From positions 17,410-49,409 of the forward strand of contig NZ_JBHSTI010000009.1 of NCBI RefSeq assembly GCF_042660085.1: a DNA stretch of 32,000 nt. Direction: 5' to 3'. This DNA is from Longivirga aurantiaca (GTDB taxonomy: Bacteria; Actinomycetota; Actinomycetes; S36-B12; CAIYMF01). The notes beneath the pieces were generated by a model. That model did not search any database. It saw nothing but the letters and a program-made list of their open reading frames with translations, and had not been told where the DNA came from. This document shows, piece by piece, positions 7,946 to 31,750 of this stretch; the first letter of the stretch is position 1; every line of letters starts with the position of its first letter. The position numbers and the translations under genes were made by a program.

Positions 7946-7991
7946 CACCCGGCCGTCGACGTCCCACGTCGTCGTACCTCATCAAGGCAGC

Positions 7992-8030: not shown

Positions 8031-8058
8031 GGGCATCTTCCGGGCGAGAGGGCATCAC

Positions 8059-8916: not shown

Positions 8917-8925
8917 TAGCGGAGG

Positions 8926-15375: not shown

Positions 15376-16341
15376 TCAGGGTCGGAGCAGCACCTTGCCC
15401 ACCGCTCTCCTGTCGTCGATCAGCCTCAGAGCCTGGTCCGCCTGGTCGAGGGTGAAGACCTCGCCGATCACTGGAGCAAGGGCGCCGTTCTCGACGAAGG
15501 GCAGGAGCGCGTTCCATCCCTCGCGCACGTGCGTGGGTCGCGTGACCCCATAGGCCCCGAGCCCGACGCCCACGACCGAGATGTTGTTGAGCAGCAACCG
15601 GTTGACCTTCACCGAGGGGATGTCGCCACCGGTGAAGCCGACGACCAGAAGCCGGCCGTCGTCGCGCAGGCAGCGGAGGGAGTCGGTGAACCGGTCGTCC
15701 CCCACGGTGTCGACGACGAGGTCGACCCCTCCCGGATGCGCCGCGAGCGTGTCGTCCTTGAACGACTCCGCCAGGACGTAGGTGTCGGCGCCGGCGCCCA
15801 GGGCGACCGCTCCCTTCTCGTGGGTCGAGGTCACGGCGATCACCGTCCCCGCACCGAAAGCCCGGGCCACCTGGATGGCTGCTGTGCCGACACCACCCGC
15901 GGCGCCCTGGACGAGGACCGACTCCCCCGCCCGCATCCGGCCCCGCTGCACCAGGGCGAACCAGGCGGTCAGGTAGTTGAGGGGGAGCGCTGCTCCCTGA
16001 TCGAACGACGTGCCGTCCGGGAGCGGCAGGACGCGAGTGACAGGCGCGGCGGCGAGCTCCGCGAAGCCGCCCAGCATGGTGAAGGCCGCCACCCGGTCGC
16101 CCGGCGCCAGCCCTGAGCCGGCGGGCGCCATGACCACCTCGCCCGCGACCTCCGAACCGGGGACGAACGGAAGGGTGGGGGACAGCTGGTAACGGCCCCG
16201 CGTCTGGAGGACCTCGGGGAACGACACGCCGGCTGCCCTGACGGCGATGAGGGCCTCGCCGGCCGCGGGCACGGGATCGGGGACGTCCGCGAGGCGCACA
16301 GCACCCGGGCCGTCGTGCGTGGTGATCTGGACGGCGCGCAT
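15376..16341 (-). CDS. NADPH:quinone oxidoreductase / zinc-free MDR-family alcohol dehydrogenase-like protein
   Basis: MRAVQITTHDGPGAVRLADVPDP ... GSEVAGEV ... VLVQGAAGGVGTAAIQ ... GKVLL. ATG at 16341 follows AAGGAG. The ORF track extends to 16926. Confidence 0.88.
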   Translation of the reverse strand: MRAVQITTHDGPGAVRLADVPDPVPAAGEALIAVRAAGVSFPEVLQTRGRYQLSPTLPFVPGSEVAGEVVMAPAGSGLAPGDRVAAFTMLGGFAELAAAPVTRVLPLPDGTSFDQGAALPLNYLTAWFALVQRGRMRAGESVLVQGAAGGVGTAAIQVARAFGAGTVIAVTSTHEKGAVALGAGADTYVLAESFKDDTLAAHPGGVDLVVDTVGDDRFTDSLRCLRDDGRLLVVGFTGGDIPSVKVNRLLLNNISVVGVGLGAYGVTRPTHVREGWNALLPFVENGALAPVIGEVFTLDQADQALRLIDDRRAVGKVLLRP

Positions 16342-16389
16342 CGTGTGCTCCTTCTGATCGGATCGTGGCCACTGTAGGCCGAATGTGTC

Positions 16390-16405
16390 TACCAAGCGCC
16401 CGATC
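16390..16405. promoter_or_regulatory. Variant operator E: TACCAAGCGCCCGATC (left arm perfect, right arm degenerate), 50 nt upstream of the quinone oxidoreductase start
   Basis: The first 10 nt are identical to sites B and C. It shares CAAGCGCCCG with the variant at 27538-27547. Confidence 0.4.
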
Positions 16406-16620
16406 AGTCCTGTCCGGGCGGAAGGCAGGCGTGGCGGCTGTCGGCCTACCACCGTGGCGCGTGGATGCGGCCTCAGAGGTGCACGGGCAACCCGGTGTGA
16501 CGCAAGGAATGCCGACGTACCGCCAGCCCGGGAAGAGCGGACGTTGAGGTGACCGTGGTGGTCTGGGCGCTCGGGGACGAGGGCCGGCGACCTCGTTCGG
16601 GAACGCGCTCGTAACAATTC

Positions 16621-16659
16621 GACCAAGCGCTTGATATACGAACCGGCGCATGCCACTGT
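16621..16659 (+). promoter_or_regulatory. Operator/promoter site D: GACCAAGCGCTTGATA (core 16624-16633), -35 TTGATA 16631-16636, 17-nt spacer, weak -10 CACTGT 16654-16659; about 100 nt upstream of the ABC transporter operon
   Basis: Perfect palindrome core. The -10 is only an nAnnnT match, so the promoter call is weaker than the operator call. Confidence 0.55.
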
Positions 16660-16732
16660 CTGCACCACCCAGAAGTCGGTGGACCCGTCTGCCGACCGTC
16701 GACACTCCTGACCCGCGTGCGAAAGGAGCCTC

Positions 16733-18358
16733 GTGACCTCCTCCACGGCTTCGCGGTCGGCCCGGCCGGTCCGGGACGACTCCGCCGTCCCGGTCGTCTC
16801 GCTGCGCGGCGTCACGAAGACGTTTGCCGGCACGCGGGCGCTGCGCCGGGTCGACCTGGACTTCTTCCCCGGGGAGATCCACGCCGTGTGCGGCGAGAAC
16901 GGCTCCGGCAAGTCGACGATGATCAAGATCCTGTCGGGGGTCTACCAGGGCGACCCCGGTGGGACGGTGTCGCTGAACGGTGAGGAGTACGACGCCGACC
17001 GCGTCACGCCGACCGTGGCCAACCGCCAGGGCGTCCGTGTGGTGCACCAGGACCTCGCGGTCTTCCCGGAGCTGACGGTTGAGGAGAACCTCGCGATCGA
17101 CGGCGGGTTCCACACCAGCAAGCTCGGCCGGATCCGCTGGCGCAAGCAGCACAAGTCGGCCGAGCAGCTGATCCGCGACTTCAAGATTCCCGCCCGGCCC
17201 AAGAGCACGCTCGCCGAACTGTCCCTGGCTGCACGCACCGAGGTGGCGATCGCACGGTCGTTGCGCGACATGGACGACCGCGGCAAGGGCCTCCTGATCC
17301 TCGACGAGCCCACCGCGGCGCTGCCGGTCAAGGAGGTCGACGCGCTCCTGGCGTCGTTGCGCGACCTCGCCGACAGCGGCCAATCGATCCTCTACGTCAG
17401 CCACCGGCTGGACGAGGTTCTGGCGCTCGCCGACTACGTGTCGGTCCTCCGCGACGGCGAGCTGGTCGGTACGTTCCCCACCTCCGAGCTCGACGAGGCC
17501 CAGCTCGTGGACCTCATGCTCGGACGAGCGGTCCACAAGGCGCTCGAGCATGTGCCGGTCGTTCCCGACGGAGACGCCGTCTTCAAGGTCGAGAACCTGT
17601 CGGTCGGGCCGCTCAAGAGTGTCTCGCTCGAGGTCCACGCCGGCGAGATGCTGGGGATCGCCGGTGTCATGGGTTCAGGTCGCAGCACGCTCCTCAAGTC
17701 GATCTTTGGCGTCGCGCAGCCGCGCGCAGGACGCTTCGTCCTCGACGGGCAGACGATGGCGGCCGACAGTCCGAAGTCTGCGATGGGCGCAGGGATCGCG
17801 ATGGTGCCCGAGCATCGCTTGCGCGACGCAGCATTCGGCAACGAGCCGGTGGACATGAACATCTCCATCAGCGTCATCGGGAAGTACTGGCGCAAGCTGG
17901 TCCTGGCGGACAAGGCCCTGCGTCAGGACGCAGACCAGCTGATCTCGGAGTACCGCGTCAAGGTGCCGACCGGTCGATCCCTGATGAGCTCGCTGTCCGG
18001 CGGCAACCAGCAGAAGGTCGTCGTCGCGCGCTGGCTCCGTCGCAAGCCTCGGCTGATCCTGCTCGACGAGCCGACCCAGGGCGTGGACGTCGGTGCGCGA
18101 GCCGAGATCTACAACATCCTGAGGCGGGCCACCCAGGACGGTGCCGCAGCAGTCCTGGTGGCCTCCGACTTCCAGGAGCTCGCTCAGGTGGTCGACCGGG
18201 CGATCGTGCTCCGCAACGGCCGAGTCGTCGCCGAGCTCCGGGGCGACGAGATCACCGCCCATCGCCTGGCGCGCCTCAGCCACGCGGATGAAGCCCCCGC
18301 GGCGGCCATGCCCACCCCTGACAGTGACTCATCCGTCGCATCTGCCGAGAAGGGATGA
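16733..18358 (+). CDS. ABC transporter ATP-binding protein, fused double-NBD (CUT2 / RbsA-MglA type)
   Basis: Two Walker A motifs (GENGSGKST, GVMGSGRST), a signature LSGGNQQK and Walker B LILDEPT/LLDEPTQG. GTG at 16733 follows AGGAG. Confidence 0.92.
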   Translation: MTSSTASRSARPVRDDSAVPVVSLRGVTKTFAGTRALRRVDLDFFPGEIHAVCGENGSGKSTMIKILSGVYQGDPGGTVSLNGEEYDADRVTPTVANRQGVRVVHQDLAVFPELTVEENLAIDGGFHTSKLGRIRWRKQHKSAEQLIRDFKIPARPKSTLAELSLAARTEVAIARSLRDMDDRGKGLLILDEPTAALPVKEVDALLASLRDLADSGQSILYVSHRLDEVLALADYVSVLRDGELVGTFPTSELDEAQLVDLMLGRAVHKALEHVPVVPDGDAVFKVENLSVGPLKSVSLEVHAGEMLGIAGVMGSGRSTLLKSIFGVAQPRAGRFVLDGQTMAADSPKSAMGAGIAMVPEHRLRDAAFGNEPVDMNISISVIGKYWRKLVLADKALRQDADQLISEYRVKVPTGRSLMSSLSGGNQQKVVVARWLRRKPRLILLDEPTQGVDVGARAEIYNILRRATQDGAAAVLVASDFQELAQVVDRAIVLRNGRVVAELRGDEITAHRLARLSHADEAPAAAMPTPDSDSSVASAEKG

Positions 18359-19594: not shown

Positions 19595-20800
19595 TTGACC
19601 GTCCACAGGAGTTCCAAGCGCCTGCTGGGGATGGGTGCAGCGATCGTGCTGCTCTCCTCCGTTCTCGCAGCATGCGGCAGCTCGTCGGATGCCCCCCCGA
19701 GCAGCAGCGCGGCATCGACCTCGGCCACGTCCGGCACCTCCGAGTCGGCGACCCCCTCGTCCGACACGGCCTGGGCCGACGCGATCGCGACCCAGTTCGT
19801 GGGCAACCCGCCGTCGACGGGCCCGGCGCCCGTCAAGGGCAAGAACGTCTGGTGGATGGGGTGCGGCAACGCCGTCCCTGACTGCAAGACCCTCTCCGAC
19901 GCCGGTGGCGAGGCAGCGAAGCTGCTGGGCTGGGACTTCCACGTCGCTGACGGCAAGGTGAACCAGGGTGGTGGCTACGCCGCCGCGATCCGCACCGCGC
20001 TGGCTGCCAAGCCCGACGCGCTTGTCATCCAGGGCATGGACTGCTCGGTGGTCCAGCAGGCGCTGCAGGAGGCCAAGGACCAGAACGTGCCGGTCTTCGG
20101 TCTCCAGTCGCTCGACTGCAACGAGATCGACCCGTCGCAGCCGTCGCTCATCCCCTGGAAGATGGTCTACAGCGAGGCCGCGCCGACCGTGCAGGACTAC
20201 TACATGGCGGCCGGCAAGAACGCTGCGGCGTACCTCATCGGCTCGTCCGGCGGCACCGCGCAGGTCATCGCGAACCTGGGCAAGGGCGGCTTCTACGAGT
20301 ACATGAACAAGGGCTTCCGCGACGAGATGGCCACCTGCTCGGGCTGCAAGATCCTGCAGGAGGTCCGCTGGGCCGACGCCGACACCGTGCCGAACGGCCC
20401 GTGGATCCAGGCGTTCACCGTCGCCCTGGCCAAGAACCCGACAGCGACCGGCGTCTTCATCCCGTTCGACTCGCTCATCACCGGCAGCGGCGGCAACCAG
20501 GCCATCAAGGACAGCGGCCTGGACATCACCCTCGCCGGCGGCTCGGGCAACCAGCCCGAGCTCCTGCAGGCCGTGCGTGACGGCGCCAAGCTGGGCCTCA
20601 CGAACGCTCAGAGCTTCCCGTGGCTCTCGTTCGGCGTCATGGACAACGTGAACCGGTACTTCGCCGGCGAGCAGCCCGTGGCCCAGGGCGTCGGCCCGAC
20701 GCTCATCGACGCGAACCACAACCTGCCCGCCGAGGGCGAGCTCTTCAACGGCACGACCGACTGGAAGACCGCATACAAGACCCTCTGGGGCGCCAGCTGA
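19595..20800 (+). CDS. Substrate-binding lipoprotein of the ABC transporter (type I periplasmic-binding-protein fold)
   Basis: TTG start follows AGGAG plus 5 nt. Signal peptide with lipobox LAAC (MTVHRSSKRLLGMGAAIVLLSSVLAAC), a Ser/Thr/Ala/Pro linker and a PBP-like body. Six further Cys, including CSGC. Confidence 0.8.
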   Translation: MTVHRSSKRLLGMGAAIVLLSSVLAACGSSSDAPPSSSAASTSATSGTSESATPSSDTAWADAIATQFVGNPPSTGPAPVKGKNVWWMGCGNAVPDCKTLSDAGGEAAKLLGWDFHVADGKVNQGGGYAAAIRTALAAKPDALVIQGMDCSVVQQALQEAKDQNVPVFGLQSLDCNEIDPSQPSLIPWKMVYSEAAPTVQDYYMAAGKNAAAYLIGSSGGTAQVIANLGKGGFYEYMNKGFRDEMATCSGCKILQEVRWADADTVPNGPWIQAFTVALAKNPTATGVFIPFDSLITGSGGNQAIKDSGLDITLAGGSGNQPELLQAVRDGAKLGLTNAQSFPWLSFGVMDNVNRYFAGEQPVAQGVGPTLIDANHNLPAEGELFNGTTDWKTAYKTLWGAS

Positions 20801-20884: not shown

Positions 20885-21475
20885 ATGGACGACCGGCAGG
20901 CGATAGCAGAGCTTCTGGCCAAGCAGCAGATCGTCGATGCCATGGCGCGCTACGCGCGGGGCATCGATCGTCGCGACGAGGCGCTCGTGCGCTCGGCGTA
21001 CCACGAGGATTCGATCGACAACCATGGGTACGGCAACGACTCCAGCGGGTGGGGTCTGGCCGCCAAGGTCCGCACCGACGGCACCGGTTTCCCCGTGGAG
21101 TGGTACAGCACGACGCACATGCTCGGTCAGCACCACATCGAGGTCGACGGCGACCGAGCCGTGAGCGAGGTCTATTTCGAGTCGGTGTCCCGCCTGCGCG
21201 ACCCGGAGGGCCGCGAGTGGCGGATCACGTGCTCGGGCCGCTATCTGGATCGGTGGACGCGACGTGACGGCCAGTTCCGCATCTCCGAGCGCACCGTGGT
21301 CTACGACGGCGAGGTCCACACAGAGCCGGTGCTCGCCAACTGGCCCGGCCCGGATCCCGCGGTACCCAAGGGTGTCTGGGGCGGGGAGTCGATCCCGGTC
21401 GACGCCGTGAAGGCGACGGCGATGGGAACGGCGGGGGAGGATGATCCCAGCTATCGGTTGTTCCGGCGCGGCTAG
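20885..21475 (+). CDS. NTF2-superfamily (SnoaL_4-like) protein A
   Basis: MDDRQAIAELLAKQQIVDAMARYARGIDRRDEALVRSAYHEDSIDNHG ... GRYLDRWTRRDGQFRISERTVVYD is a typical SnoaL-like pattern. ATG at 20885 follows GGAGGAG. It is a paralogue of 22050..22598. Confidence 0.75.
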   Translation: MDDRQAIAELLAKQQIVDAMARYARGIDRRDEALVRSAYHEDSIDNHGYGNDSSGWGLAAKVRTDGTGFPVEWYSTTHMLGQHHIEVDGDRAVSEVYFESVSRLRDPEGREWRITCSGRYLDRWTRRDGQFRISERTVVYDGEVHTEPVLANWPGPDPAVPKGVWGGESIPVDAVKATAMGTAGEDDPSYRLFRRG

Positions 21476-22053
21476 AGCCGGTGGCGGCCGAGGAAGGCCT
21501 GGTAGCTCGCCAGCGACTCCGGGAGGTCGGCGGGCTGAGGCTCGCTCCCTGGCCAGCGGCGCCGGGGAAGACGCGGGTCCATCGTCGGCAGGTCGGCCAG
21601 CGGCATGACGTAGTAGAAGCGTGCTTCTCGCGAGCCGAGGAGCCATGCCCCCGAGGCACGCGTGTAGGTGTCCAGGTAGCGGTGCGCGGCAAGCACGATC
21701 CCGCGGTCCACCATGTGCTCCGCATGGGCGAGCACGGTGCCGCGTGCCGTGTCGGGAGTGTCGAACTCGATGATGGCCCCGTGGATCACGTGGTACGTGG
21801 GCCCGAAGTCCGCGAGCCGCGAGGCGAACTGCCGAGCCATCGCCTCGTGGCCCTCGGTGCGGCGGCCGCTCGACAGGAAGTACCCGTCCTCCGCGTAGCA
21901 GCCCACCAGCGCGTCGATGTCACGGTCGTCGCAGGCCATGCAGTAGCGGAGCAGGAGATCGTCGATGGCCTGGCGGCTCTCGACCCGGTCGAGGCGCTCC
22001 AGCAGCGTCGGACGCTCGCGCGCCCCGGACCCTGGATCGCCGCGTCCGGTCAT
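21472..22053 (-). CDS. NTF2-superfamily (SnoaL_4-like) protein B
   Basis: RQAIDDLLLRYCMACDDRDIDALVGCYAEDGYF ... HRYLDTYTRASGAWLLGSREARF. The start overlaps the upstream gene's stop (ATGA). Confidence 0.7.
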   Translation of the reverse strand: MTGRGDPGSGARERPTLLERLDRVESRQAIDDLLLRYCMACDDRDIDALVGCYAEDGYFLSSGRRTEGHEAMARQFASRLADFGPTYHVIHGAIIEFDTPDTARGTVLAHAEHMVDRGIVLAAHRYLDTYTRASGAWLLGSREARFYYVMPLADLPTMDPRLPRRRWPGSEPQPADLPESLASYQAFLGRHRL

Positions 22054-22598
22054 CGCAAGGCCTCGAGGCGCAGGACGTAGCTCGGGTCGGAGGCGTCGCG
22101 CGTCCCGACCACGAAGTCGTCGGGAAAGGGCATCCGCCGGCTGGGGCGATCACCGGGGACCAGAGCAGACTGGCCCGCCCAGTCGTAGATCACGGTCCGG
22201 TGCGCGATTCGCCATTCGCCTGAACGACATTCGAAGCGATCCTCGTATCGGCAGCCGATGAGCAGGACGGCCTGGCTTCCGCCCGTGTCCGCGTGGCCAA
22301 CATGGAAGCCGACTGCCGTGGTCTCCGCCCAGGCGACGTCGCCGCGCAGCTCTACCAGGGGTGGGGAGGTGGTGTGACTGGTCGCAACCCACATCGCCGG
22401 GTCGGACGTCGACACGAGCTCGGCGAAGTCGCGGGCAGATCCCCGGAACATGTTGTGGTCGTCGGTTGCATCAGGGTGGTAGCACGCCAGCATGAGCTCG
22501 CGGTCGCGTCGGTCGGTACCGCGGGCAAGTCGCAGGATGACCTGCGCGATCTCCACGCGGGCCGCGAGCTCCTCGAGCCTTGCCTCGTGGTCCGTCAT
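22050..22598 (-). CDS. NTF2-superfamily (SnoaL_4-like) protein C
   Basis: EIAQVILRLARGTDRRDRELMLACYHPDATDDHN ... CRYEDRFECRSGEWRIAHRTVIYD ... DASDPSY. It shares the YH.D...DH and DPSY motifs with protein A. Confidence 0.75.
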   Translation of the reverse strand: MTDHEARLEELAARVEIAQVILRLARGTDRRDRELMLACYHPDATDDHNMFRGSARDFAELVSTSDPAMWVATSHTTSPPLVELRGDVAWAETTAVGFHVGHADTGGSQAVLLIGCRYEDRFECRSGEWRIAHRTVIYDWAGQSALVPGDRPSRRMPFPDDFVVGTRDASDPSYVLRLEALR

Positions 22599-22602
22599 GA
22601 CA

Positions 22603-23370
22603 TCAGCCCAGCTCGCGGGGCGGCACGACCGACATCAGGCCGCCGTCAGCGACGAACTCGGAGCCGGTGCAGTAGGACGCCTCGTCCGAGAGGAGGAAGG
22701 CCACCACCTCGGCGAGCTCACGAGGGTGGCCGGTGCGTCCGAGCGCGACGTTCGCCGGCTGCTGTCCGGCTGCTGCCTGGTTGTCCCAGTCGGGACGACT
22801 GAGCGGGGTGTCGACGTAGCCCGGGAACACGCTGTTGATCCGGACGCCCATGACGCCGAGCTCATGCACCAGGGTCTTGGTCAGTCCACGGATCGCGTAC
22901 TTGCTCGTGGAGTAGGCGACGTTGCTGCGAAGGCCGGCGAGACCGGCGCAGGACGAGATGTTCACGATGGACCCGGATCCTGATTCGCGCAGGTGCGGCA
23001 ACGCGGCCTTGATGCCGAGGAACGGGCCGACCGTGTTGACTGCCAGGATCCTGGTCATCTCGGCGCCGTCCGTGTCCAGCAGGCCGTGCCCCGTGGCGAT
23101 GCCGGCGTTGTTGACCAGCCCGTCGATGCGGCCGTAGCGCTTCACCGCTTCGGCGACGTAGCTGTCCCACGATGCTGCATCTGCGACGTCCAGGTGCACC
23201 GCGAGCGCCGCAGCCCCGAGCTCCGCGGCCCGTGCGTCAGCCGCGTCCAGGACGATGTCGCCGAGGACGACGCTCCCACCCTCGCGCACGATCGCTGCGG
23301 CGGTGGCGGCACCGATGCCGTTGCCGCCACCCGTGATGAGCACGACGCGCCCCTGATGGCGTGCGGTCAT
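22603..23370 (-). CDS. SDR, 3-alpha(or 20-beta)-hydroxysteroid dehydrogenase-like
   Basis: TGGGNGIGAA, NNAG, NISSCAG, YSTSKYAIRG, PGYVDTP. The overall pattern resembles FabG3/20-beta-HSD-type SDRs. Confidence 0.85.
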   Translation of the reverse strand: MTARHQGRVVLITGGGNGIGAATAAAIVREGGSVVLGDIVLDAADARAAELGAAALAVHLDVADAASWDSYVAEAVKRYGRIDGLVNNAGIATGHGLLDTDGAEMTRILAVNTVGPFLGIKAALPHLRESGSGSIVNISSCAGLAGLRSNVAYSTSKYAIRGLTKTLVHELGVMGVRINSVFPGYVDTPLSRPDWDNQAAAGQQPANVALGRTGHPRELAEVVAFLLSDEASYCTGSEFVADGGLMSVVPPRELG

Positions 23371-23409
23371 GGCAGCCTCCCGTGCTTCGAGTGGTGGATC
23401 GGGTCGCGG

Positions 23410-24645
23410 TTACGCGGTCGGGATGTCCTTGAAGGGGATTCCTCGGTCGGCGCGTGGACCGGAGGGCAGGCCGAGGATGCGCTCGGCGATGATGCCGCGC
23501 TGGATCTCGTTGGAACCGCCGGCGATGCGGTAGCCCAGCGCGCCGAGAACGTGCTCGTGCCAGAGATAGGTCTCGGGTTCGCCGGTGTCGGCGACCAGGC
23601 GCGGTCCCAGGATCTGGGCGACCGTCTCACTGATCTGCACCATGCCCTCGACCCACTGGAGCTTGCGCATCGAGCCCTCGGGGCCACGCGGCGTGCCCCG
23701 TAGCCGCGCGCTGAGGTCGCGGGCGACATCCACCTTGGCAAGGACGTGACGTGTGTACGCGTCGGCGAGCATGGGACGCACGCTCGGGTCGCCCGTGCGG
23801 CCCATGGCCTCGGCGAGTGCGAGCACCTGGATCCAGGACCCGCCCAGCGTGGTGTCGTCCCCGGACGCGTCACGCTCGAAGCCGAGCATGGTCGTGGCGA
23901 CCTTCCAGCCGCCCCCCACCTCGCCCACGCGGTACTCGTCCGACAGTCGCACGTCGTCGAGGAACACCTCGTTGAAGCAGGAGCCACCGGTCATCTGACG
24001 GAGCGGCCGGACGTCCACGCCCGGAGTCTCGAGCGGGAGCAGGAACGCCGTGATTCCGGCGTGCTTGACGACGTCGACGTCCGAACGGGCGAGCAGCAGG
24101 CCGTAGCCGGCGAACTGCGCTCCGCTGGACCACACCTTCTGCCCCGAGATGGACCAGCCGCCGTCGTCGAGCCGGGTGGCACGAGTCGTCAGACCGGCGA
24201 GGTCGCTCCCCGCAGCCGGCTCGGAGAACAGCTGCGCGCAGACGAGCTCGGACCGGGCGAGCGGTCCGACGAACGTCGCTCTCTGCTCGTCGGTCCCGAG
24301 CAGCCGCAGCATCGGAGCAACGAGACGCGTCGTGATCGGCAGCAGGTCGTGGTGGGGTACGTCGTACTCCGCCTCGACAGCCGAGACGGCGTCGGCGTGG
24401 GCCCGCGTCAGTCCGTGACCACCGAACTCCTCGGACCAGTCGAGCCCGGCGAGGCGGTTGTCCCACTTCGCCTGCAGCCAGGCCCGGGCCTCGTCCAACA
24501 GCCGCACCTCGTCGTCGTGCGAGGTGTCGGTGAAGATCGCGACGCTCCACGGCTTGCCCGACCGCGACTCGGTGTCGAGCCGCTTCGGGACTCGGTCGTC
24601 GAACCACGCGCGCGCGCGGTGGGCGGTCTCCTCGACAGTCTCCAC
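23410..24645 (-). CDS. Acyl-CoA dehydrogenase, FAD-binding/catalytic-type subunit
   Basis: FSEPAAGSDLAG ... GQKVWSSGA (FAD/substrate motifs), LGFERD (Glu at the IVD/LCAD-type base position), C-terminal IAGGSNEIQRGIIAERILGLP. GTG at 24645 follows AGGAG plus 5 nt. The ORF track extends to 25125. Confidence 0.88.
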   Translation of the reverse strand: METVEETAHRARAWFDDRVPKRLDTESRSGKPWSVAIFTDTSHDDEVRLLDEARAWLQAKWDNRLAGLDWSEEFGGHGLTRAHADAVSAVEAEYDVPHHDLLPITTRLVAPMLRLLGTDEQRATFVGPLARSELVCAQLFSEPAAGSDLAGLTTRATRLDDGGWSISGQKVWSSGAQFAGYGLLLARSDVDVVKHAGITAFLLPLETPGVDVRPLRQMTGGSCFNEVFLDDVRLSDEYRVGEVGGGWKVATTMLGFERDASGDDTTLGGSWIQVLALAEAMGRTGDPSVRPMLADAYTRHVLAKVDVARDLSARLRGTPRGPEGSMRKLQWVEGMVQISETVAQILGPRLVADTGEPETYLWHEHVLGALGYRIAGGSNEIQRGIIAERILGLPSGPRADRGIPFKDIPTA

Positions 24646-24658
24646 GTCGGCTCCTGGC

Positions 24659-25804
24659 TCAGAGGGCGAGCGACTGCAGCAGCCGCTCGCGGTGGAAGGC
24701 GGGGGAGCCGAGCGCGACTCGGGACGCGAGGGCGCGGCGGTAGTAGCGGTGCGCCTGGTGCTCCCACGTGAACCCGATGCCGCCGTGGATCTGGATCGTC
24801 TCCAGCGCCGCCAGGTAGAACGTCTCGGAGCACACGACACCGGAGATCGAGGCGGCTTCGGCGCGCTGTCGCGGATCCGCCGGCGCGGCAGAGACGGCGT
24901 ACTCGACCGCGGAGGCGGCGGTGTCGATGGAGATCGCCAGATCGGCCAGCCTGTGCTGCAGCGCCTGGAACGACCCGATGGGCTGGCCGAACTGGAAGCG
25001 GGTCGAGGCGTAGGCGACGGTGAGGTCGAGGAGGTGACGACTCGCCCCCAGCTGCTCGCACGCCGCGGCCGCCACCGCCGCATCGAGCACCGGAGCGAGG
25101 AGGTCGTCGCAGCGGCCGACAGCACCGACCAGTCGCGCCGGTGTGGACTCCAACCTCAGCAGTGCCTGCGGCCTGGTGGTGTCCACGACGGACATGGCAG
25201 AGCGGGAGAGGCCGCGGGCGTCCGACGCCACCAGGAACCAGCCGTGCTCGTCGTCGGAGGTTCGGGCCAGCAGAAGGATCGCGTCGGCCACTGTGCCGTA
25301 GGGGACGAAGGGCTGGTCGCCGGTCAGGACCCAGGCGCCGTCGACGCCGAGCTCGGCGGCGACGGCCGACCGGCTCACCGGCGCGAGAACGGAGTCGTCG
25401 CCCAGCGCGACAGCGACGACCGTGCTGCCGTCGACGATCCCGGGCAGGATGTCGCCGGCAGCGCCTTCGTCCCCGGCGGCGAGGACCAGCGTCACCGCCA
25501 CGACGCAGCTCGGGGCGAACGGCACGCACGCCAGACTGCTGCCGAGCGCCTCCAGCACGACACGCGCCTCCGCCCACCCGAGGCCGAGCCCGCCGTGCGC
25601 CTCGGGAACCAGCACGCCGGTGACGCCGAGGTCCTGTGCCAGCGTGCGCCACAGCGGGGCGTCGAGGCCGTCGAGGCCGTCGGCCACCGCGGCCACGCGC
25701 TCGATGGGGGACTCGGCAGCCAGCACCGATCGCACGGCTTCGGCCATCGAGCGCAGCTCGTCCGTCGGCTCCGTCAGCAGCAGCGCGCCGGCTGTGGTGC
25801 TCAT
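24659..25804 (-). CDS. Acyl-CoA dehydrogenase-family protein, degenerate (non-FAD-binding type) subunit
   Basis: ACAD N- and C-terminal signatures are present (PEAHGGLGLG; IQIHGGIGFTWEHQAHRYYRRA), but the S/T-E-P-x-x-G-S-D motif and both usual catalytic-Glu positions are missing. ATG at 25804 overlaps the CoA-ligase stop (ATGA). Confidence 0.8.
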   Translation of the reverse strand: MSTTAGALLLTEPTDELRSMAEAVRSVLAAESPIERVAAVADGLDGLDAPLWRTLAQDLGVTGVLVPEAHGGLGLGWAEARVVLEALGSSLACVPFAPSCVVAVTLVLAAGDEGAAGDILPGIVDGSTVVAVALGDDSVLAPVSRSAVAAELGVDGAWVLTGDQPFVPYGTVADAILLLARTSDDEHGWFLVASDARGLSRSAMSVVDTTRPQALLRLESTPARLVGAVGRCDDLLAPVLDAAVAAAACEQLGASRHLLDLTVAYASTRFQFGQPIGSFQALQHRLADLAISIDTAASAVEYAVSAAPADPRQRAEAASISGVVCSETFYLAALETIQIHGGIGFTWEHQAHRYYRRALASRVALGSPAFHRERLLQSLAL

Positions 25805-27354
25805 GTGGTGCTCCACAGCTCGCGCAGAGCGTCCTTCTTCACCTTCTGGGAGGCGTTCCGGGGGAGCTCGTCGAGGAAGCGGACCGAGGTCGGCTTCTTG
25901 AAGCTCGCCATGTGCTCCTTGGCGAAGGCCACGACGTCCTCCTCCGTGATGGCAGATCCCGGGCGCCGGACGACCGCGGCCGCCACGGTCTCACCCCACT
26001 TGTCGTGCGGGACGCCGAACACCGCGATCTCCGCGATGCCGTCCAGCTCCCGGAGTACCCGCTCGACCTCCGCCGGGTACACGTTGGCGCCGCCGCTGAC
26101 GATCATGTCGCGCTTGCGGTCCACGATGTAGGCGTATCCCTGGTGGTCGACCCACCCGACGTCACCCGTCAGATAGCGGCCGTCCTTGAATGCCGCTGCC
26201 GTCTGCTCGGGGTTGTTCCAGTAGCCGGCGAAGATGGTGTCCTGCTCGACGGCGAACTCCCCGACGTGCTCGCGTCCGCGTGGGAGGACGTTGCCGTCGT
26301 CATCGAGGACGAACAGCCGTGTGGTAGGTGCCGGGCGCCCCACCGTCGCCCAACGGTCCTCTGCCGTCCCGAGGCCGATCGCATCGTTGCGCGTCAGGCA
26401 GGTGAGCGCGCCGACGATCTCCGTCGCCCCCCAGCCGTGGAAGTACTTGTCGCCGACGAGGTCGACGATCTTCCGGATCTCGGCGGGAGTGGCTGCCGAT
26501 GCGCTGTGGTTCAGCGTCTCGAGGTGTGCGATGACGTCGGGGTAGTCCCGCGCCTTCTCGACGAACCGGTCGATCAGAGGGCTCGGGCAGTACGTGAACG
26601 TCGTGCGGTCCTGCCGCATGGTCTCGAACCACGAGTCGACCGTGTAGTCGCGGATGAGGTTGACCATCCCGCCGACGTACAGGTGCGGGAGGATGATGGT
26701 CCACCAGGGGGCGGCGTACCCGAGCCCGCCGATGTAGGCGAGCCTGCTGTAGTGCGGGACGCGCAGAACCCCGACGCTCGAGCGGACGCAGAGGACCAGC
26801 GTCGACTGCGTGACCATGGCGCCCTTGGGGAATCCGGTGGTTCCGCTCGTGTACCCGATGATCGCAAGGTCATCGGGCAGCGACTCGTGGAGGGCGAGAG
26901 CCGGTTCGGCGGCCTCGAGGGCCGCGGCGTAGTCGAGCCTGTTGCCCGACGGCGACTCGGACGGTGCTAGGTGCAGGACGACGTCGATGGTCGCAGCTGT
27001 GGGTGCTCCGGCGACGGAGGCTCGGACTCCATCGGTGTGCACCAGCCCGCGCGCCCCGGAATCACGCAGGACGTGGTCGAGCTCGGAGGCCTTGAACCCA
27101 GCGTTGACGGGCACGATGACCAGACCGGCGATCGTGATCCCCATGAGGACTTCGACCGCTTCGGCGCAGTTCTCCAGCATCAAGAGCACGCGGTCGCCCG
27201 GCTGGAGGCCGCGCGACCGCAGCACGTTGGCGACGCGCGCGGCGTTGAGCAGGACGTCGGCGTACGTGCGATCGCCGTTCACGGACCGGACCGCGGTCAG
27301 CTCGCTGTGACGCTCGCAGCTTCGCACGAGCATCCCGCCGAGGGTGTCCTGCAC
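25801..27354 (-). CDS. Acyl-CoA synthetase (AMP-forming, ANL superfamily)
   Basis: YTSGTTGFPKGA, GWGATE, TGDVGWVDHQGYAYIVDRKRDMIVSGGANVYP, PRNASQKVKK. GTG at 27354 follows GGAGGGAG plus 7 nt. The ORF track extends to 28113. Confidence 0.9.
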   Translation of the reverse strand: MQDTLGGMLVRSCERHSELTAVRSVNGDRTYADVLLNAARVANVLRSRGLQPGDRVLLMLENCAEAVEVLMGITIAGLVIVPVNAGFKASELDHVLRDSGARGLVHTDGVRASVAGAPTAATIDVVLHLAPSESPSGNRLDYAAALEAAEPALALHESLPDDLAIIGYTSGTTGFPKGAMVTQSTLVLCVRSSVGVLRVPHYSRLAYIGGLGYAAPWWTIILPHLYVGGMVNLIRDYTVDSWFETMRQDRTTFTYCPSPLIDRFVEKARDYPDVIAHLETLNHSASAATPAEIRKIVDLVGDKYFHGWGATEIVGALTCLTRNDAIGLGTAEDRWATVGRPAPTTRLFVLDDDGNVLPRGREHVGEFAVEQDTIFAGYWNNPEQTAAAFKDGRYLTGDVGWVDHQGYAYIVDRKRDMIVSGGANVYPAEVERVLRELDGIAEIAVFGVPHDKWGETVAAAVVRRPGSAITEEDVVAFAKEHMASFKKPTSVRFLDELPRNASQKVKKDALRELWSTT

Positions 27355-27534
27355 GTCTGGTCTCCCTCCACCGCCGAGCGGTGCACTGGTGGTCTGGCCG
27401 GCCCGCTGTGGGCGAGCTTGAGCGCGCGCTCCGGACCGCGGGCGCCGGCTGCGACCGAGGCCGCGAGGCCCCTGACGCACGGGCGTCTGCCCTCGTCGTG
27501 AACCGCCACCACCCTGGCACACGCAACGGGAATT

Positions 27535-27578
27535 AATCAAGCGCCCGGTTGACAATGCGCTTCGGCGGCCACTAGCGT
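27535..27578. promoter_or_regulatory. Variant (split) operator F in the divergent promoter region: AATCAAGCGC-CCGG-TTGACA-AT-GCGCTT; + strand -35 TTGACA 27549-27554, 18-nt spacer, -10 TAGCGT 27573-27578 (LLM operon); possible minus-strand -35 TTGATT (27540-27535) for the CoA-ligase operon
   Basis: Read directly. The left half-site TCAAGCGC (27537-27544) and GCGCTT (27557-27562) bracket the -35 instead of abutting each other. Confidence 0.55.
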
Positions 27579-27636
27579 CCGAGCGTCCGGTCACGACCTG
27601 ACGTCGCAGTGCGTACACGTAGGCGGGAGGTGCTCG

Positions 27637-28491
27637 GTGGACATCGGCGTGATGACGCTGCTCACCGACGAGAGCTCGTCGCCGTACGAGGTCGCCCGAG
27701 CTCTCGAGGTCCGCGGCTTCGAGTCCCTGTTCATCGGCGAGCACACGCACATGCCGCACGTCCCGGCCACGGAGTACCCGGGCGAGCGCGGGGAGCTGCC
27801 CCCGGGGGTCAATCGCACGTACGACCCGTGGACCGCACTCATGGCAGCAGCGACGGCCACCAGCCGCCTGAGGCTCGGCACCAGCATCTGCGAGCTGGCC
27901 GTCTACGACCCGATCCTGCTGGCGAAGGTGATCGCGTCGGTCGACCGGCTGTCGGGCGGCCGACTGGTCCTGGGCCTCGGCTACGGCTGGAACGTGCCGG
28001 AGATCGAGAACCACGGGGTCGCGTTCGCCGATCGTCGCGATGTTCTCCACGAGAACCTCGAGGCCATGACGGCGATCTGGACCCAGGACGTCGCGAGCTA
28101 CTCCGGTCAGCACGTCTCGTTCGACCAGATCCTGTGCTGGCCCAAGCCGCTCCAGTCACCACGGCCGCCTGCCCTGCTGGGAGCCACCGGGCCGAAGGGG
28201 CTGGCAGCCGCCGTCGCCTACTTCGACGGCTGGATGCCGACGGGTTACGACAACTTCGTCCGTGGGCTCCCGCTGCTCCGGCAGGCCTGCGAGGCGGCGG
28301 GCCGCGACATCAGCACGGTGCGCATCACCGTCACGGATCGGCATCCCGATTCAGAGCGGATGGCCTTCTACGCCGAGAACGGCGCCGAGCGCCTCATCGT
28401 GTCCAAGGTCATGACCCAGTTCACCCCGGCCACTCTGGATCGCGAGCTCGACACGCTCGCGGCCGTGGTGGGCGAGCACCTTCATCCGTAA
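27637..28491 (+). CDS. LLM-class (luciferase-like) flavin/F420-dependent oxidoreductase
   Basis: MDIGVMTLLTDES ... FESLFIGEHTHMP ... RLRLGTSICELAVYDPILLAKVIASVDRLSGGRLVLGLGYGW is typical of actinobacterial LLM F420-dependent oxidoreductases. GTG at 27637 follows GGGAGG. Confidence 0.85.
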   Translation: MDIGVMTLLTDESSSPYEVARALEVRGFESLFIGEHTHMPHVPATEYPGERGELPPGVNRTYDPWTALMAAATATSRLRLGTSICELAVYDPILLAKVIASVDRLSGGRLVLGLGYGWNVPEIENHGVAFADRRDVLHENLEAMTAIWTQDVASYSGQHVSFDQILCWPKPLQSPRPPALLGATGPKGLAAAVAYFDGWMPTGYDNFVRGLPLLRQACEAAGRDISTVRITVTDRHPDSERMAFYAENGAERLIVSKVMTQFTPATLDRELDTLAAVVGEHLHP

Positions 28492-28536
28492 GTCCGATCC
28501 GACCCGCCCCGGCGGGTCATGACATGGGAGTCACGC

Positions 28537-29856
28537 GTGGCGTGGGATTTCGAGACCGAGCCTGAGTTCCAGGAGAAGCTCGACTGGATGAACGAGTTCG
28601 TCCGCAACGAGGTCGAGCCGCTGGACCTGGTCATCCGCAACGTCTGGAACGTGGCCGACCCGATCCGCAACGAGCTCATCAAGCCGCTTCAGGACGTCGT
28701 TCGGGCGAAGGGGCTGTGGGCGTGCAATCTCGGCCCCGAGCTGGGAGGTGCAGGCTACGGCCAGCTCAAGCTCGCGCTGATGAATGAGATTCTCGGCCGC
28801 ACCGTCGCCGGGCCCGTGGTCTTCGGCAGCCAGGCGCCGGACTCCGGCAACGCGGAGATCCTCGCGCACTACGGAACCCCGGAGCTGAAGGAGCGCTACC
28901 TCGAGCCGCTCCTGCGCAACGAGATCGTCTCCGCCTACTCGATGACCGAGCCCACGGGCGGTTCGGACCCGACGAACTTCAAGACCAAGGCGGTCCTCGA
29001 CGGAGACGAGTGGGTGATCACGGGCGAGAAGTGGTTCAGCTCGCACGCCAACCTGGCTGACTTCATCATCGTGCTCGCCGTCACCGACCCCGACGCCGAG
29101 CCGCACAAGAACTCGTCGATGTTCGTCCTTGCGCGTGACACCCCCGGCGTCGAGATCATCCGCGGCATTGCGCCGTGGGGCCACCCCGACTCGGACGCCA
29201 CGCACTGCTATGTCCGCTACAACGATGTGCGGATCCCGGCCAGCAACATCCTGGGCCCGCGCGGCGCCGGGTTCGCCGTCGCGCAGACGCGTCTGGGCGG
29301 TGGTCGCGTCCATCACGCCATGCGTGCGGTCGGCGTGGCCCAGAAGGCCTACGACATGATGGTCGAGCGCTCGGTGAGCCGGTCGACGAAGAACGGCTCG
29401 CTCTCCAGCCGGCAGCTCATCCAGGAGATGATCGCGGACTCGTGGATCGAGATCGAGCAGTACCGCCTTCTCGTCATGCGCACCGCCTGGCGCATCGACA
29501 AGTACAAGGACTACCTCAAGGTCCGCAAGGACATCGCGGCGGTCAAGGCGGTCATGCCGATCATGCTGCGCAGCGTGGTCTCGCGGTCGATCCAGGTCCA
29601 TGGCTCGATCGGCATCTCGACCGAGATGAGCCTCGGCAAGTGGCTCATCGAGAGCTACGGGCTCGGCCTAGCCGACGGTGCCACGGAGATCCACAAGCTC
29701 AACCTCGCGCGCGAGCTGCTCAAGGGCGCCGTACCCGCGCCGGACGTCTTCCCGAGTCAGCACCTGCTCCGTCTGCGAGCCGCCGCCGTCGAGAAGTACG
29801 GCGACGTGCTCGGCCCGGACGTCGACCTTCCCTCGCCCGGAGGTTCCTTCGGATGA
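28537..29856 (+). CDS. Acyl-CoA dehydrogenase-family protein, ACAD10/11-FadE2-like (Asp in place of the canonical C-terminal catalytic Glu)
   Basis: AWDFETEPEFQEKLDWMNEFV N-terminus, YSMTEPTGGSDP, GEKWFSSHA, QVHGSIG, and LADGATEIHK where MCAD-type enzymes have IYEGTSEIQR. GTG at 28537 follows GGGAG plus 6 nt. An in-frame ATG at 28519 is the alternative, as in the ORF track. Confidence 0.88.
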   Translation: MAWDFETEPEFQEKLDWMNEFVRNEVEPLDLVIRNVWNVADPIRNELIKPLQDVVRAKGLWACNLGPELGGAGYGQLKLALMNEILGRTVAGPVVFGSQAPDSGNAEILAHYGTPELKERYLEPLLRNEIVSAYSMTEPTGGSDPTNFKTKAVLDGDEWVITGEKWFSSHANLADFIIVLAVTDPDAEPHKNSSMFVLARDTPGVEIIRGIAPWGHPDSDATHCYVRYNDVRIPASNILGPRGAGFAVAQTRLGGGRVHHAMRAVGVAQKAYDMMVERSVSRSTKNGSLSSRQLIQEMIADSWIEIEQYRLLVMRTAWRIDKYKDYLKVRKDIAAVKAVMPIMLRSVVSRSIQVHGSIGISTEMSLGKWLIESYGLGLADGATEIHKLNLARELLKGAVPAPDVFPSQHLLRLRAAAVEKYGDVLGPDVDLPSPGGSFG

Positions 29857-30935
29857 CGACGTCTGAAGTTCCGGGATTCACCGAGGTCGCGCCCGTCCGT
29901 CCGGGTGAGGACCTCGACTGGGTCGCGCTCGAGCGCTACCTCCGGGACACCATCCCGGGGCTCGTGGGCGAGTTCTCGGTGCTTCAGTTCCCCAACGGAT
30001 CGGCCAACCTCACCTATCGGGTCGCCTTCGGCGACCGACAGCTGGTCGTCCGTCGTCCGCCGCTGGGCCAGCTGGCCATCGGTTCGCACGACATGAAGCG
30101 TGAGCACCGAGCCCTGTCGGGGCTGTGGGTGGCCTACGACCGTGCACCGAAGCCGTTGGCGTACACCGACGATGTGAGCATTGTCGGCGCCGAGTTCCTC
30201 GTCATCGAGTACCGCTCGGGCGTCGTCATCTGGGGAAGCGACACGGTGCCGCCGGTGATCAGGGCCATGCCGGACCACGGCCATCGCATCGGCATGTCGC
30301 TCATCGACGCGCTGATCGACCTGCACCTGGTCGACATCCACCACACGGGGCTGATCAACCTCGGCAAGCCCGAGGGGTTCCTCGAGCGACAGCTCCGTGG
30401 GTGGCGCCGGCGTTGGGACGCCGTCTCGGACGTCGGCCCCGACCACCCGCTGATGGAGGGGCTCGCCGACCGGCTGTTCGAACGCGTCCCCGTCTCGCCG
30501 CCGCCGACCGTCCTGCACAACGACTTCAAGCTCGACAACTGCCAGTTCTCCTCGGAGAGCCCCGATCGCGTGATCTCCGTGTTCGACTGGGACATGGCCA
30601 CGGTGGGCGATCCGCTCGTAGATCTGGGGACGCTCCTGAACTACCTCCCTGACCCCGACGGCCAGGAGCTCGAGCGCGTCGCGATCCCCGGGCTGGAATC
30701 CCTCGGCCTTCCCTCGCGGCAGACGATCGTGGAGCGCTACGCGGCCCGCACCGGCACGGACGTCGGGTCGATCCACTGGTACGAGGCCTACGGCATCTGG
30801 AAGACGGCCGTGATCATGCAGCAGCTCTACGCTCGGTACGCCCGGGGTGAGACGTCCGACGAGCGGATGGGCACACGGGCGGACCGCATGGACGGCGTGG
30901 CCGCCCGGGCGCTCGATCTGCTCGGCGGAGGGTGA
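29853..30935 (+). CDS. Phosphotransferase-family (APH/ChoK-like) kinase
   Basis: FPNGSANLTYRV (nucleotide-binding region), Brenner motif LHNDFKLDN, then VFDWDMATVGDPLVDLG. ATG at 29853 overlaps the ACAD stop (ATGA). Trimmed from ORF 29175..30935. Confidence 0.88.
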   Translation: MTTSEVPGFTEVAPVRPGEDLDWVALERYLRDTIPGLVGEFSVLQFPNGSANLTYRVAFGDRQLVVRRPPLGQLAIGSHDMKREHRALSGLWVAYDRAPKPLAYTDDVSIVGAEFLVIEYRSGVVIWGSDTVPPVIRAMPDHGHRIGMSLIDALIDLHLVDIHHTGLINLGKPEGFLERQLRGWRRRWDAVSDVGPDHPLMEGLADRLFERVPVSPPPTVLHNDFKLDNCQFSSESPDRVISVFDWDMATVGDPLVDLGTLLNYLPDPDGQELERVAIPGLESLGLPSRQTIVERYAARTGTDVGSIHWYEAYGIWKTAVIMQQLYARYARGETSDERMGTRADRMDGVAARALDLLGGG

Positions 30936-30940
30936 CGCGC

Positions 30941-31750
30941 ATGGCTGAGTTCGACCCGGCGATCCGTGAGGCGGACGAGACGAGACTCGACGAGCCGTCC
31001 GACTTCGCGTTCCTCACCTGGACCGTCCAGGACCGGATCGCCACGGTCGTGATGAGCCGGCCACCGGTCAACGCGGTCAACCAGCGCATGTACCGGGAGC
31101 TGCACCGGCTCTTCACGCAGGTGGACCGCTTCCTGGTCGGCTCCTCGGTCGTCGTCCTCCTCGCGGACGGAAAGCACTTCTGCGGAGGCAACGATCTGGG
31201 CGAGTTCGCCACCATGACCTCCGACAATGCCCGGGAGCGCATGTACCACGCGCGCGAGGCCTTCTACGCGATCATGGACTGCCCTCTCCCGACGGTGGCC
31301 GCGGTCCAGGGGGTGGCAACCGGCACCGGGATCGGCATCGCCTCGTCGTGCGACGTCGTGATCGCGGCAGACGACGCCCGCTTGGGGCTCACCGAGGTCA
31401 AGGTCGGGGTGATGGGTGGCCCGCGCCACCTGGCGAGGATGCTGCCTCAGCACATCGTTCGCTACATGTTCCTCACGGGCGAGCTCATGGCCGCACCCGA
31501 GATGGCTCGGCTCGGCGGCATCCTCGAGGCGGTGCCGGCGGACAAGCTGAGGGAGCGGGCGCACGAGATCGCTGCCCTGATGGCCCGCCATGATCCGCTC
31601 GTGCTGCGCACCGCCAAGTTGGCCATGAACGAGGTCGAGGAGATGGACCTCCGCGTCGGGTACGAGCGTGAGCAGAGCCGTACCCTGGAGCTCGCGGATC
31701 GACCCGAGCGCAAAGAGGCCCTGCAGCGGTTCTTCGACAAGGGCGCCTGA
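30941..31750 (+). CDS. Enoyl-CoA hydratase/isomerase (crotonase family)
   Basis: VVMSRPPVNAVN, HFCGGNDLGEF, VAAVQGVATGTGIGIASSCDVVIA. The alternative start GTG at 30932 overlaps the kinase stop (GTGA). Confidence 0.85.
   Translation: MAEFDPAIREADETRLDEPSDFAFLTWTVQDRIATVVMSRPPVNAVNQRMYRELHRLFTQVDRFLVGSSVVVLLADGKHFCGGNDLGEFATMTSDNARERMYHAREAFYAIMDCPLPTVAAVQGVATGTGIGIASSCDVVIAADDARLGLTEVKVGVMGGPRHLARMLPQHIVRYMFLTGELMAAPEMARLGGILEAVPADKLRERAHEIAALMARHDPLVLRTAKLAMNEVEEMDLRVGYEREQSRTLELADRPERKEALQRFFDKGA

Follow-up and report, generated by a model that had tools for sequence, protein, structure and literature searches.

Which reaction is carried out by the acyl-CoA dehydrogenase (ACAD) and the kinase that are encoded side by side near the right end of this DNA? 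The window, that is, the whole stretch of 32,000 nucleotides analysed here, comes from the bacterium Longivirga aurantiaca. Public labels call the two proteins ‘acyl-CoA dehydrogenase’ and ‘aminoglycoside phosphotransferase’ (APH). Homology and conserved residues suggest instead that kinase and ACAD are probably a version of the ACAD10/ACAD11 (LvaC/LvaA) system split over two proteins, acting on a hydroxyacyl-CoA. A first-pass annotation, made from the letters of the window alone, had proposed a module of this kind.

Removal of a gamma-hydroxyl group by a kinase together with an ACAD has been known from P. putida since 2017 and from mammals since 2024-25 (PMC12440821, PMC11342911). Only one branch of this kinase/ACAD family has been characterised so far, and for both proteins the window holds a second one. 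What is new here is that both fall in well-supported sister clades and that a canonical pair lies in the same genome. Correcting the labels would improve metabolic models of Actinomycetota and of other soil and water bacteria.

Homology and catalytic residues

The two genes in question, and the motifs within them that matter most, are as follows. Clade B is the branch of the ACAD tree described further below.

28537-29856, plus strand: ACAD10/11-type enzyme with the ACAD fold, clade B, 439 amino acids (PF02771, PF02770, PF00441; PDB matches; trees)
29290-29325, plus strand: RLGGGRVHHAMR, phosphate-binding helix of the ACAD (alignment to 8v3u)
29668-29697, plus strand: LADGATEIHK with the catalytic Asp380 in 439-residue numbering (alignment to ACAD11 D753)
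29853-30935, plus strand: APH-fold small-molecule kinase of the ACAD10/11/LvaA family (PF01636, E 9.8e-35; PDB matches; tree)
30516-30539, plus strand: HNDFKLDN motif of the kinase (motif mapping)
30585-30593, plus strand: DWD motif of the kinase (motif mapping)

In a search of the solved structures in the PDB, the ACAD matches a protein of M. abscessus (4hr3, E 6.8e-70) and mouse ACAD11 (E 2.6e-69) far better than the top ordinary ACAD (E 7.7e-39). An AlphaFold2 model of the ACAD monomer, built from 29 sequences, has a pLDDT of 88.4. A Foldseek search with this model returns 4hr3, 2wbi (human ACAD11) and 8v3u (mouse ACAD11) at the top, with TM scores of 0.88-0.90.

One hallmark of the family is the catalytic base. 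In the HMMER alignment the LADGATEIH of the window ACAD lies on LADGPDEVH of ACAD11, so that its Asp corresponds to D753, the catalytic base of ACAD11 (Rashan et al., PMC12440821). The hand alignment of the first-pass annotation, which had put Asp in place of the canonical C-terminal Glu, agrees with this; the other two motifs that it had quoted, HNDFKLDN and DWD, are likewise where it had placed them, in the kinase. The Glu-to-Asp replacement is a known hallmark of the ACAD10/11-type family, not a new feature. PDB entry 8v3v is an ACAD11 chain in which the corresponding Asp is mutated to Asn.

A second hallmark is the helix that binds the phosphate. In ACAD11, R626, H634 and R637 (the ‘HCMR’ motif) hold the 4-phosphate, and R631 is common to all ACADs (PMC12440821). 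The helix RLGGGRVHHAMR supplies equivalents of R626, R631, H634 and R637; the Cys of the HCMR motif is replaced by Ala, as it is in 4hr3. Judging from the alignment, every residue known to matter for 4-phosphoacyl-CoA binding or catalysis is kept, with the exception of this Cys. None of the 78 aligned clade-B homologs departs from the catalytic Asp or from the R, R, H, H, M and R positions, and alignment A1 shows the same invariance. The Asp and the phosphate-binding features have been stated to be confined to ACAD10/11 and LvaC (PMC12440821).

The kinase tells a similar story. Its best matches among solved structures (phmmer) are 9o56 (E 2.9e-76, 41% identity), 3dxp (E 1.9e-37) and the kinase domain of ACAD11 (E 2.7e-36), and the next APH-fold structure, 3ats, reaches only E 2.6e-06. 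Residues 12-354 align to residues 8-350 in a full-length match to the ACAD11 kinase domain, and in BLASTP the two kinases are 30.9% identical across 349 residues (E 1e-42). For comparison, LvaA is 29% identical to the ACAD11 kinase (Paquay et al., PMC11342911).

The catalytic set of the kinase is complete. It consists of the beta3 Arg (R67/R68), the alphaC Glu (E84), D224, K226, N229 and the Mg-binding D245; the roles of these residues are described in bioRxiv 10.1101/2025.09.10.675409. The clade of the window kinase is marked by HND..K and DWD where the other branches of the family have HGD and DWE, and Asp substitutes for the Glu of DWE across the whole of this clade.

Gene coupling

The two genes belong to a four-gene operon on the plus strand, at the right end of the window, which has a G+C content of 69%. 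Two further genes complete the operon.

27637-28491, plus strand: luciferase-like monooxygenase (LLM) family oxidoreductase, F420-type, first gene of the operon (PF00296, E 4.6e-47; TIGR03619)
30941-31750, plus strand: crotonase-fold protein (PF00378, E 1.1e-40; alignment to PaaF, 4fzw)

Translations of the open reading frames (ORFs), together with the Pfam and NCBIfam assignments, bear out the four genes in the frames of the first-pass annotation. The intergenic distances are 45 nt, -4 nt and then either -4 or +5 nt. The TGA stop of the ACAD (29854-29856) shares bases with the kinase ATG at 29853, in a junction of the ATGA type (GGATGACG). Likewise, the kinase ends in a TGA (30933-30935) that shares bases with a GTG at 30932; an ATG comes shortly after, at 30941. 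Both junctions, ATGA and GTGA, had been called earlier and can be read directly in the sequence.

The ACAD has an alternative start, an ATG at 28519. From the GTG at 28537 the protein reads M-A-W-D-F-E-T-E-P-E-F, which matches the M-x-W-D-F-E-T-D-P-E-F of its homologs, and a GGGAG sits 6 nt upstream of this GTG. The GTG is the better start because of these two features, in keeping with the earlier call, and the ACAD of a relative that is 82% identical is also called at 439 amino acids.

No LvaB-like small ORF is found between the genes of the operon, or after them up to the TetR gene. The first-pass annotation had also seen none, and the gaps between the genes leave no space for one.

Two sister branches

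In order to place the ACAD, clade A is defined as ACAD11, 4hr3 and two further ACADs of the L. aurantiaca genome (C62 and C8, named after their contigs), and clade B as the window ACAD with 26 relatives. In a maximum-likelihood tree, clade A and clade B each have an SH-aLRT support of 99 and are joined as sisters at 97. The joint superclade lies far from the ordinary ACADs, on a stem of 1.7 changes per site. The window ACAD is thus no ortholog of ACAD11, since it falls in clade B and ACAD11 in clade A. LvaC stands outside this tree and is grouped with ACAD11 by published identity alone.

The kinase tree has a corresponding structure. The window kinase belongs to a clade of 19 members (support 100), whose genes lie beside or near those of clade-B ACADs. 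The structure 9o56 is sister to this clade (98), and the family as a whole has a support of 99. The ACAD11 kinase with 3dxp, and the C62 kinase, are other branches of the same family.

These trees uphold the earlier proposal of a module like Lva or ACAD10/11: the ACAD groups with ACAD11 and 4hr3, and the kinase is a full-length homolog of the ACAD11 kinase. Both proteins are placed with their ACAD10/11 relatives, and not in clades unrelated to LvaA/LvaC or ACAD10/11. At the level of residues every mark of the family is present; orthology alone does not hold, because the window pair is a sister branch.

The assembly of the genome (3.67 Mb in 71 contigs) was searched for further copies. A second pair, in which the kinase gene precedes that of the ACAD, lies on the minus strand at C62:1892-4188 (locus L002, 164-2460). 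The ACAD of this pair shares 53% identity with mouse ACAD11 (E 5.4e-135) and carries RLGPGRIHHCMR and LADGPDEVH. The two genes are 30-45 nt apart, without an LvaB-like ORF. A third ACAD11-like gene, also of clade A, is found at C8:3461-4708 (locus L005); it is 54.5% identical to mouse ACAD11 and far from all APH-family matches in the genome, the nearest being at C8:473989. The window ACAD is 36.7% identical to mouse ACAD11 and 41% to the C62 ACAD, and the two kinases share 39% identity.

By these identities and trees, the window pair represents a sister clade that is paralogous to the characterised enzymes, and the C62 and C8 genes are the closer counterparts of ACAD11 and, going by published homology, of LvaC. 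Since a canonical pair is present in the same genome, the window pair probably serves a different hydroxyacyl-CoA. Two pairs in one genome also offer a clean comparison for finding what determines the substrate range of ACAD10/11-type enzymes.

Distribution

Relatives of the window ACAD occur in the genomes of at least 589 species in a scan with one genome per species. The best 80 of these, 58-65% identical to the window ACAD, are taken as clade B and come from Actinomycetota, Binatia, Myxococcota, Spirochaetota, Planctomycetota, Acidobacteriota and Pseudomonadota. A kinase of the family lies within 200 nt of the ACAD at 19 of these loci; the number rises to 41 of 80 if the distance is extended to 7 kb. 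Both gene orders are seen. Among five genomes without a neighbouring kinase, four have a window-type kinase elsewhere.

An even sample of 201 genomes of the phylum gives a second view. Clade-B ACADs are present in 24 of them, the genome of the window included. With a cut-off of E <= 1e-40, a kinase of the family is found in 21 of the 23 other ACAD-bearing genomes, as against 93 of the 201 overall; since the genomes are related, these counts do not amount to a statistical test.

The linkage between the two proteins is many-to-many, and clade-B ACADs also adjoin kinases of other subclades. A one-to-one phylogenetic profile of window-type kinase and clade-B ACAD was considered and rejected, as the kinases come from several subclades. 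The kinases of the phylum sample nearest to that of the window (41-45% identity) are mostly found in genome families in which no clade-B ACAD was detected, for instance f18.

A doubled arrangement is found in Amycolatopsis acidicola (locus L012). There, two pairs in the order ACAD then APH (6700-9361 and 15535-17074) lie 7 kb apart in one cluster, and a 96-residue ORF immediately follows the first kinase. A literature search found no functional study of mycobacterial FadE36/Rv3761c, which we take to be an APH-like ‘FadE’.

Comparison with known systems

Among the closest known systems is that of ACAD10 and ACAD11 (PMC12440821; PMC11342911; PDB 8v3u, 8v3v, 2wbi). It shares with the window an APH-fold kinase and an Asp-type ACAD with the R..R.HxMR helix, the same catalytic residues in the kinase over a full-length alignment, and, in the predicted model, the ACAD fold (TM 0.89-0.90). 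ACAD10/11 are single chains with the kinase before the ACAD, whereas the window has two coupled proteins, ACAD then kinase, that fall in sister clades and are only 37% (ACAD) and 31% (kinase) identical to their counterparts. Furthermore, the window ACAD has an extra conserved C-terminal helix, its kinase has HND/DWD in place of HGD/DWE, and its operon lacks the HAD domain.

Another relative is the lvaABCDE system of P. putida (Rand et al. 2017, as described in PMC12440821 and PMC11342911), together with the LvaA/LvaC orthologs of Burkholderia pseudomallei. Here, as in the window, the kinase and the Asp-type ACAD are separate proteins, with a ligase and a short-chain dehydrogenase/reductase (SDR) nearby. 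Unlike lvaABCDE, the window has no LvaB, a reversed gene order and a TetR-type regulator with a palindromic operator. Its operon includes the F420-type LLM and a crotonase with a single catalytic Glu, and its ligase and SDR belong to a divergent operon that also encodes a heteromeric ACAD. The published identity of LvaC to ACAD10/11 is 56-62%, close to that of the C62 and C8 ACADs to ACAD11 (53-54.5%), whereas the window ACAD reaches only 37%.

The M. abscessus protein 4hr3 is the best match of the ACAD in both sequence and fold (TM 0.88), with HHAMR and LADGPDEVH. It differs in belonging to clade A, and its entry, titled only ‘putative’, names no function.

For the kinase, a homolog of the ACAD10 kinase from Caldalkalibacillus thermarum has the same beta3 Arg, alphaC Glu, catalytic Asp, Lys and Asn, and Mg-binding Asp. 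It has HYD/DWE where the window kinase has HND/DWD, and it has been characterised as a 1-O-alkylglycerol kinase that is stimulated by acetyl-CoA.

Proposed mechanism

The analysis establishes the homology, the conservation of the residues for catalysis and phosphate binding, how the genes are coupled and how the clades are arranged; from there we infer the reaction and its substrate, and with them the roles of the LLM and the crotonase. By analogy with ACAD10/11, the kinase would first phosphorylate the gamma-hydroxyl of an acyl-CoA with ATP. The ACAD would then grip the phosphate through its R..R.HH.MR helix. Next, the Asp base and FAD would bring about a transient oxidation, elimination of the phosphate and re-reduction, with an enoyl-CoA as the product of a net redox-neutral reaction. 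This chemistry has been proposed for ACAD10/11 (PMC12440821, PMC11342911). Finally, the crotonase would isomerise or hydrate the enoyl-CoA toward beta-oxidation.

The substrate would probably be supplied by the co-regulated ligase, the steroid-type heteromeric ACAD, the SDRs, and a monooxygenase and a metallo-beta-lactamase (MBL) fold hydrolase further left. The F420-type LLM may form the hydroxyl from a ketone, in a role like that of LvaD.

Several points weigh against this proposal. For every member of clade B the reaction is a prediction, and the comparison with LvaA/LvaC draws on published identities and on ACAD11 as a characterised proxy. At roughly half of the clade-B ACAD loci the DNA examined contains no kinase, and two complete genomes of one genus have a clade-B ACAD and no kinase of the family (E <= 1e-40). 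The nearest solved relative of the kinase, 9o56, is probably a protein that phosphorylates 1-O-alkylglycerol. Lastly, only family precedent suggests the roles given above to the LLM and the crotonase, and neither gene is kept beside related pairs.

A more far-reaching version of the proposal is conceivable, if doubtful. Clade B might be a functionally distinct branch of phospho-elimination, spanning phyla, for hydroxylated acyl-CoAs that are bulky, branched or ring-opened (derived from terpenoids, steroids or lactones) and beyond the reach of the canonical pair. In the window, the LLM would then be an F420H2-dependent ketoreductase that makes the hydroxyl, and the one-Glu crotonase would isomerise a product other than the 2-trans enoyl-CoA.

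Alternative explanations

The alternative that survives best, though still an unlikely one, keeps the machinery of kinase and phosphate-eliminating ACAD and changes what it acts on, to a substrate class or position other than 4-hydroxy fatty acyl-CoAs. The hydroxyl may sit on a bulky, branched or ring-derived acyl-CoA. Alternatively, the Arg/His helix may hold another anionic leaving group, and the product may be a 3-enoyl or dienoyl compound that needs the single-Glu crotonase.

The separate sister clade speaks for this alternative, with 37% identity to ACAD11 as against 53-54.5% for the clade-A copies of the genome, as does the presence of the canonical pair. Clade-B ACADs also share a conserved N-terminus of their own and run on for about 30 more residues at the C-terminus, where the model predicts a helix (409-425), and the kinase clade has HND/DWD instead of HGD/DWE. 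Among the conserved neighbours are heteromeric ACADs nearest to Tcur3481/Tcur3483 and 4x28, and the crotonase lacks the first Glu of the hydratases. On the other hand, the known 4-phosphoacyl-CoA residues are unchanged except for the Cys-to-Ala replacement in HCMR, which clade-A 4hr3 shares, and no sequence feature points to another substrate.

A quite improbable alternative is that the kinase acts mainly on 1-O-alkylglycerols (ether or monoacyl-glycerol lipids), and that its coupling to the ACAD reflects some other shared pathway. This is suggested by 9o56, the sister of the window kinase clade and its closest solved match (E 2.9e-76, 41%). A literature search on 9O56 yielded no paper; from its HYDYK and DWE motifs it is very probably the C. 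thermarum protein, which phosphorylates 1-O-alkylglycerol in vitro and for which a test with hydroxyacyl-CoA is not reported (bioRxiv 10.1101/2025.09.10.675409). According to the same preprint, prokaryotic homologs phosphorylate chimyl alcohol with stimulation by acetyl-CoA. The activity has been reported for ACAD10 kinase domains too, and the preprint calls the relation between the two activities unclear. Against a lipid kinase stand the translational coupling to an ACAD that keeps the phosphate-binding helix and a neighbourhood devoted entirely to acyl-CoA catabolism, and stimulation by a CoA thioester itself fits a pocket for CoA substrates. The clade-B pair might bear on which of the two, hydroxyacyl-CoA or alkylglycerol, such kinases act on.

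It is very improbable that the ACAD is an ordinary FAD-dependent alpha,beta-dehydrogenase beside an unrelated antibiotic or small-molecule kinase, as the public annotation (‘acyl-CoA dehydrogenase’, ‘aminoglycoside phosphotransferase family’) and the many clade-B ACADs without an adjacent kinase might suggest, because neither the Asp base nor the Arg/His/Arg helix varies, ACAD11 with the same residues is inactive on plain acyl-CoAs (PMC12440821), the ATGA overlap is accompanied by an adjacency that recurs across phyla, and the kinase is far nearer to that of ACAD11 (2.7e-36) than to other APH-fold structures (3ats, 2.6e-06).

The other genes of the operon

The LLM protein scores 226.8 bits against TIGR03619, where the cut-off is 166.9, and the genome has cofD (357.6 bits, cut-off 257.45). 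Its nearest solved relatives are Mer and an F420-dependent hydroxymycolic acid dehydrogenase. A redox step between keto and hydroxy groups of a lipid would be a reasonable role, given the F420 family, cofD and the likeness to hydroxymycolic acid dehydrogenase.

In rat enoyl-CoA hydratase the catalytic residues are E144 and E164, and enoyl-CoA isomerases belong to the crotonases with one Glu. At the site of the first catalytic Glu, where PaaF and other hydratases have the pattern G-x-G-x-E-L-A..CD, the crotonase of the window has a Gly (GTGIGIA, in GTGIGIASSCD at 31322-31354). The second Glu is kept, in LTEV (31388-31408). The protein scores below the NCBIfam cut-offs, and it does not have the two Glu residues of an enoyl-CoA hydratase proper. 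Although it has the crotonase fold, it is more likely to be an isomerase-type or some other one-Glu enzyme than a true hydratase, and an isomerase role is as likely as hydration.

These two genes were also considered as conserved parts of the module. This was rejected, as no ortholog of at least 45% identity lies beside any of the 80 ACAD loci. Both genes share the operon only in the 82% relative (locus L009), and they are lineage-specific additions. The association with an LLM gene at the head of the operon, noted in the first-pass annotation, is real and confined to this lineage.

The divergent operon

Upstream of the LLM gene lies a second operon on the opposite strand.

27355-27636, no strand: intergenic control region that separates two divergent operons, that of the CoA ligase (minus) and that of LLM, ACAD, kinase and crotonase (plus), from reading of the sequence
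21472-27354, minus strand: companion operon with acyl-CoA ligase, heteromeric ACAD subunits, SDR and two SnoaL_4 genes (Pfam; synteny)
25801-27354, minus strand: acyl-CoA ligase (Pfam)
24659-25816, minus strand: heteromeric ACAD subunit (Pfam; PDB matches)
23410-24645, minus strand: heteromeric ACAD subunit (Pfam; PDB matches)
22603-23370, minus strand: SDR (Pfam)

The heteromeric ACAD subunits have their best PDB matches in Tcur3481/Tcur3483 (6wy8, 6wy9) and in 4x28, which we take to be steroid-type alpha2beta2 ACADs. Orthologs of the beta subunit (up to 55%) and of the alpha subunit (up to 44%) accompany pairs of clade-B ACAD and kinase in other Actinomycetota. As a lead to the substrate this was rejected: in Thermomonospora echinospora, the subunit encoded next to a clade-B pair is no ortholog of Tcur3481 (E 1.3e-43 only).

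In Actinomycetota, the clade-B ACAD and the kinase recur as a set with an acyl-CoA ligase and two heteromeric ACAD subunits. This set is seen in Thermomonospora, Actinomadura, Prauserella, Streptomyces, Dietzia, Rhodococcus, Thermobifida and Amycolatopsis, and SDR, DUF35 and thiolase-like genes often join it. In the 82% relative, which comes from a metagenome, the layout is the same as in the window. One strand has SnoaL, SDR, two ACADs and ligase; the other has LLM, ACAD, kinase and crotonase, and then a second LLM, SnoaL and TetR.

The ligase and the SDR had been read earlier as counterparts of the remaining Lva steps. That part of the proposal stands only in so far as both genes exist on the divergent operon. 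They are generic, and the ligase is a weak candidate for a conserved counterpart of LvaE, as the ligases adjoining related pairs are only 25-31% identical to it. Real conservation among the neighbours is seen for the two heteromeric ACAD subunits.

Regulation and surroundings

Within the intergenic region, a TTGACA (27549-27554) stands between the half-sites TCAAGCGC and GCGCTT (27537-27562). These are related to the palindrome CAAGCGCTTG, which occurs exactly at 1928-1937, 6619-6628, 14517-14526 and 16624-16633 and with one mismatch at 7543-7552 and 19615-19624. The window thus has six sites with at most one mismatch, where 0.7 are expected, and they lie upstream of several operons. A consensus scan made no promoter call in 27355-27636, and the scan for operon promoters and terminators was uninformative. 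A TetR-like gene begins at 31861, according to the first-pass annotation.

Taken as a whole, the window is a catabolic regulon, with genes for a P450, a thiolase, a HAD hydrolase, MaoC, several SDRs, an aldo-keto reductase, an ABC importer and three SnoaL_4 proteins.

Four genes in a row on the plus strand, at 6701-10193, encode an Acyl-CoA_dh_2-type protein with the ACAD fold, an MBL-fold hydrolase, an SDR and a flavin reductase. The first of these is probably an oxygenase. Between them, the four proteins could convert cyclic ketones or lactones into hydroxy acids, ahead of the step of the kinase and ACAD.

The HAD-family hydrolase (4531-5316, plus strand) is weakly similar to YihX and to the phosphatase domain at the N-terminus of soluble epoxide hydrolase (E 1.6e-4 for the latter). 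It deserves mention only since ACAD10 has a HAD phosphatase domain.

The contig of the window (C9, 49 kb) has a G+C content of 69.1%, as against 72% in the two large contigs, and the window ends at the end of this contig. The contig may be a horizontally acquired catabolic island; a binning error is less likely.

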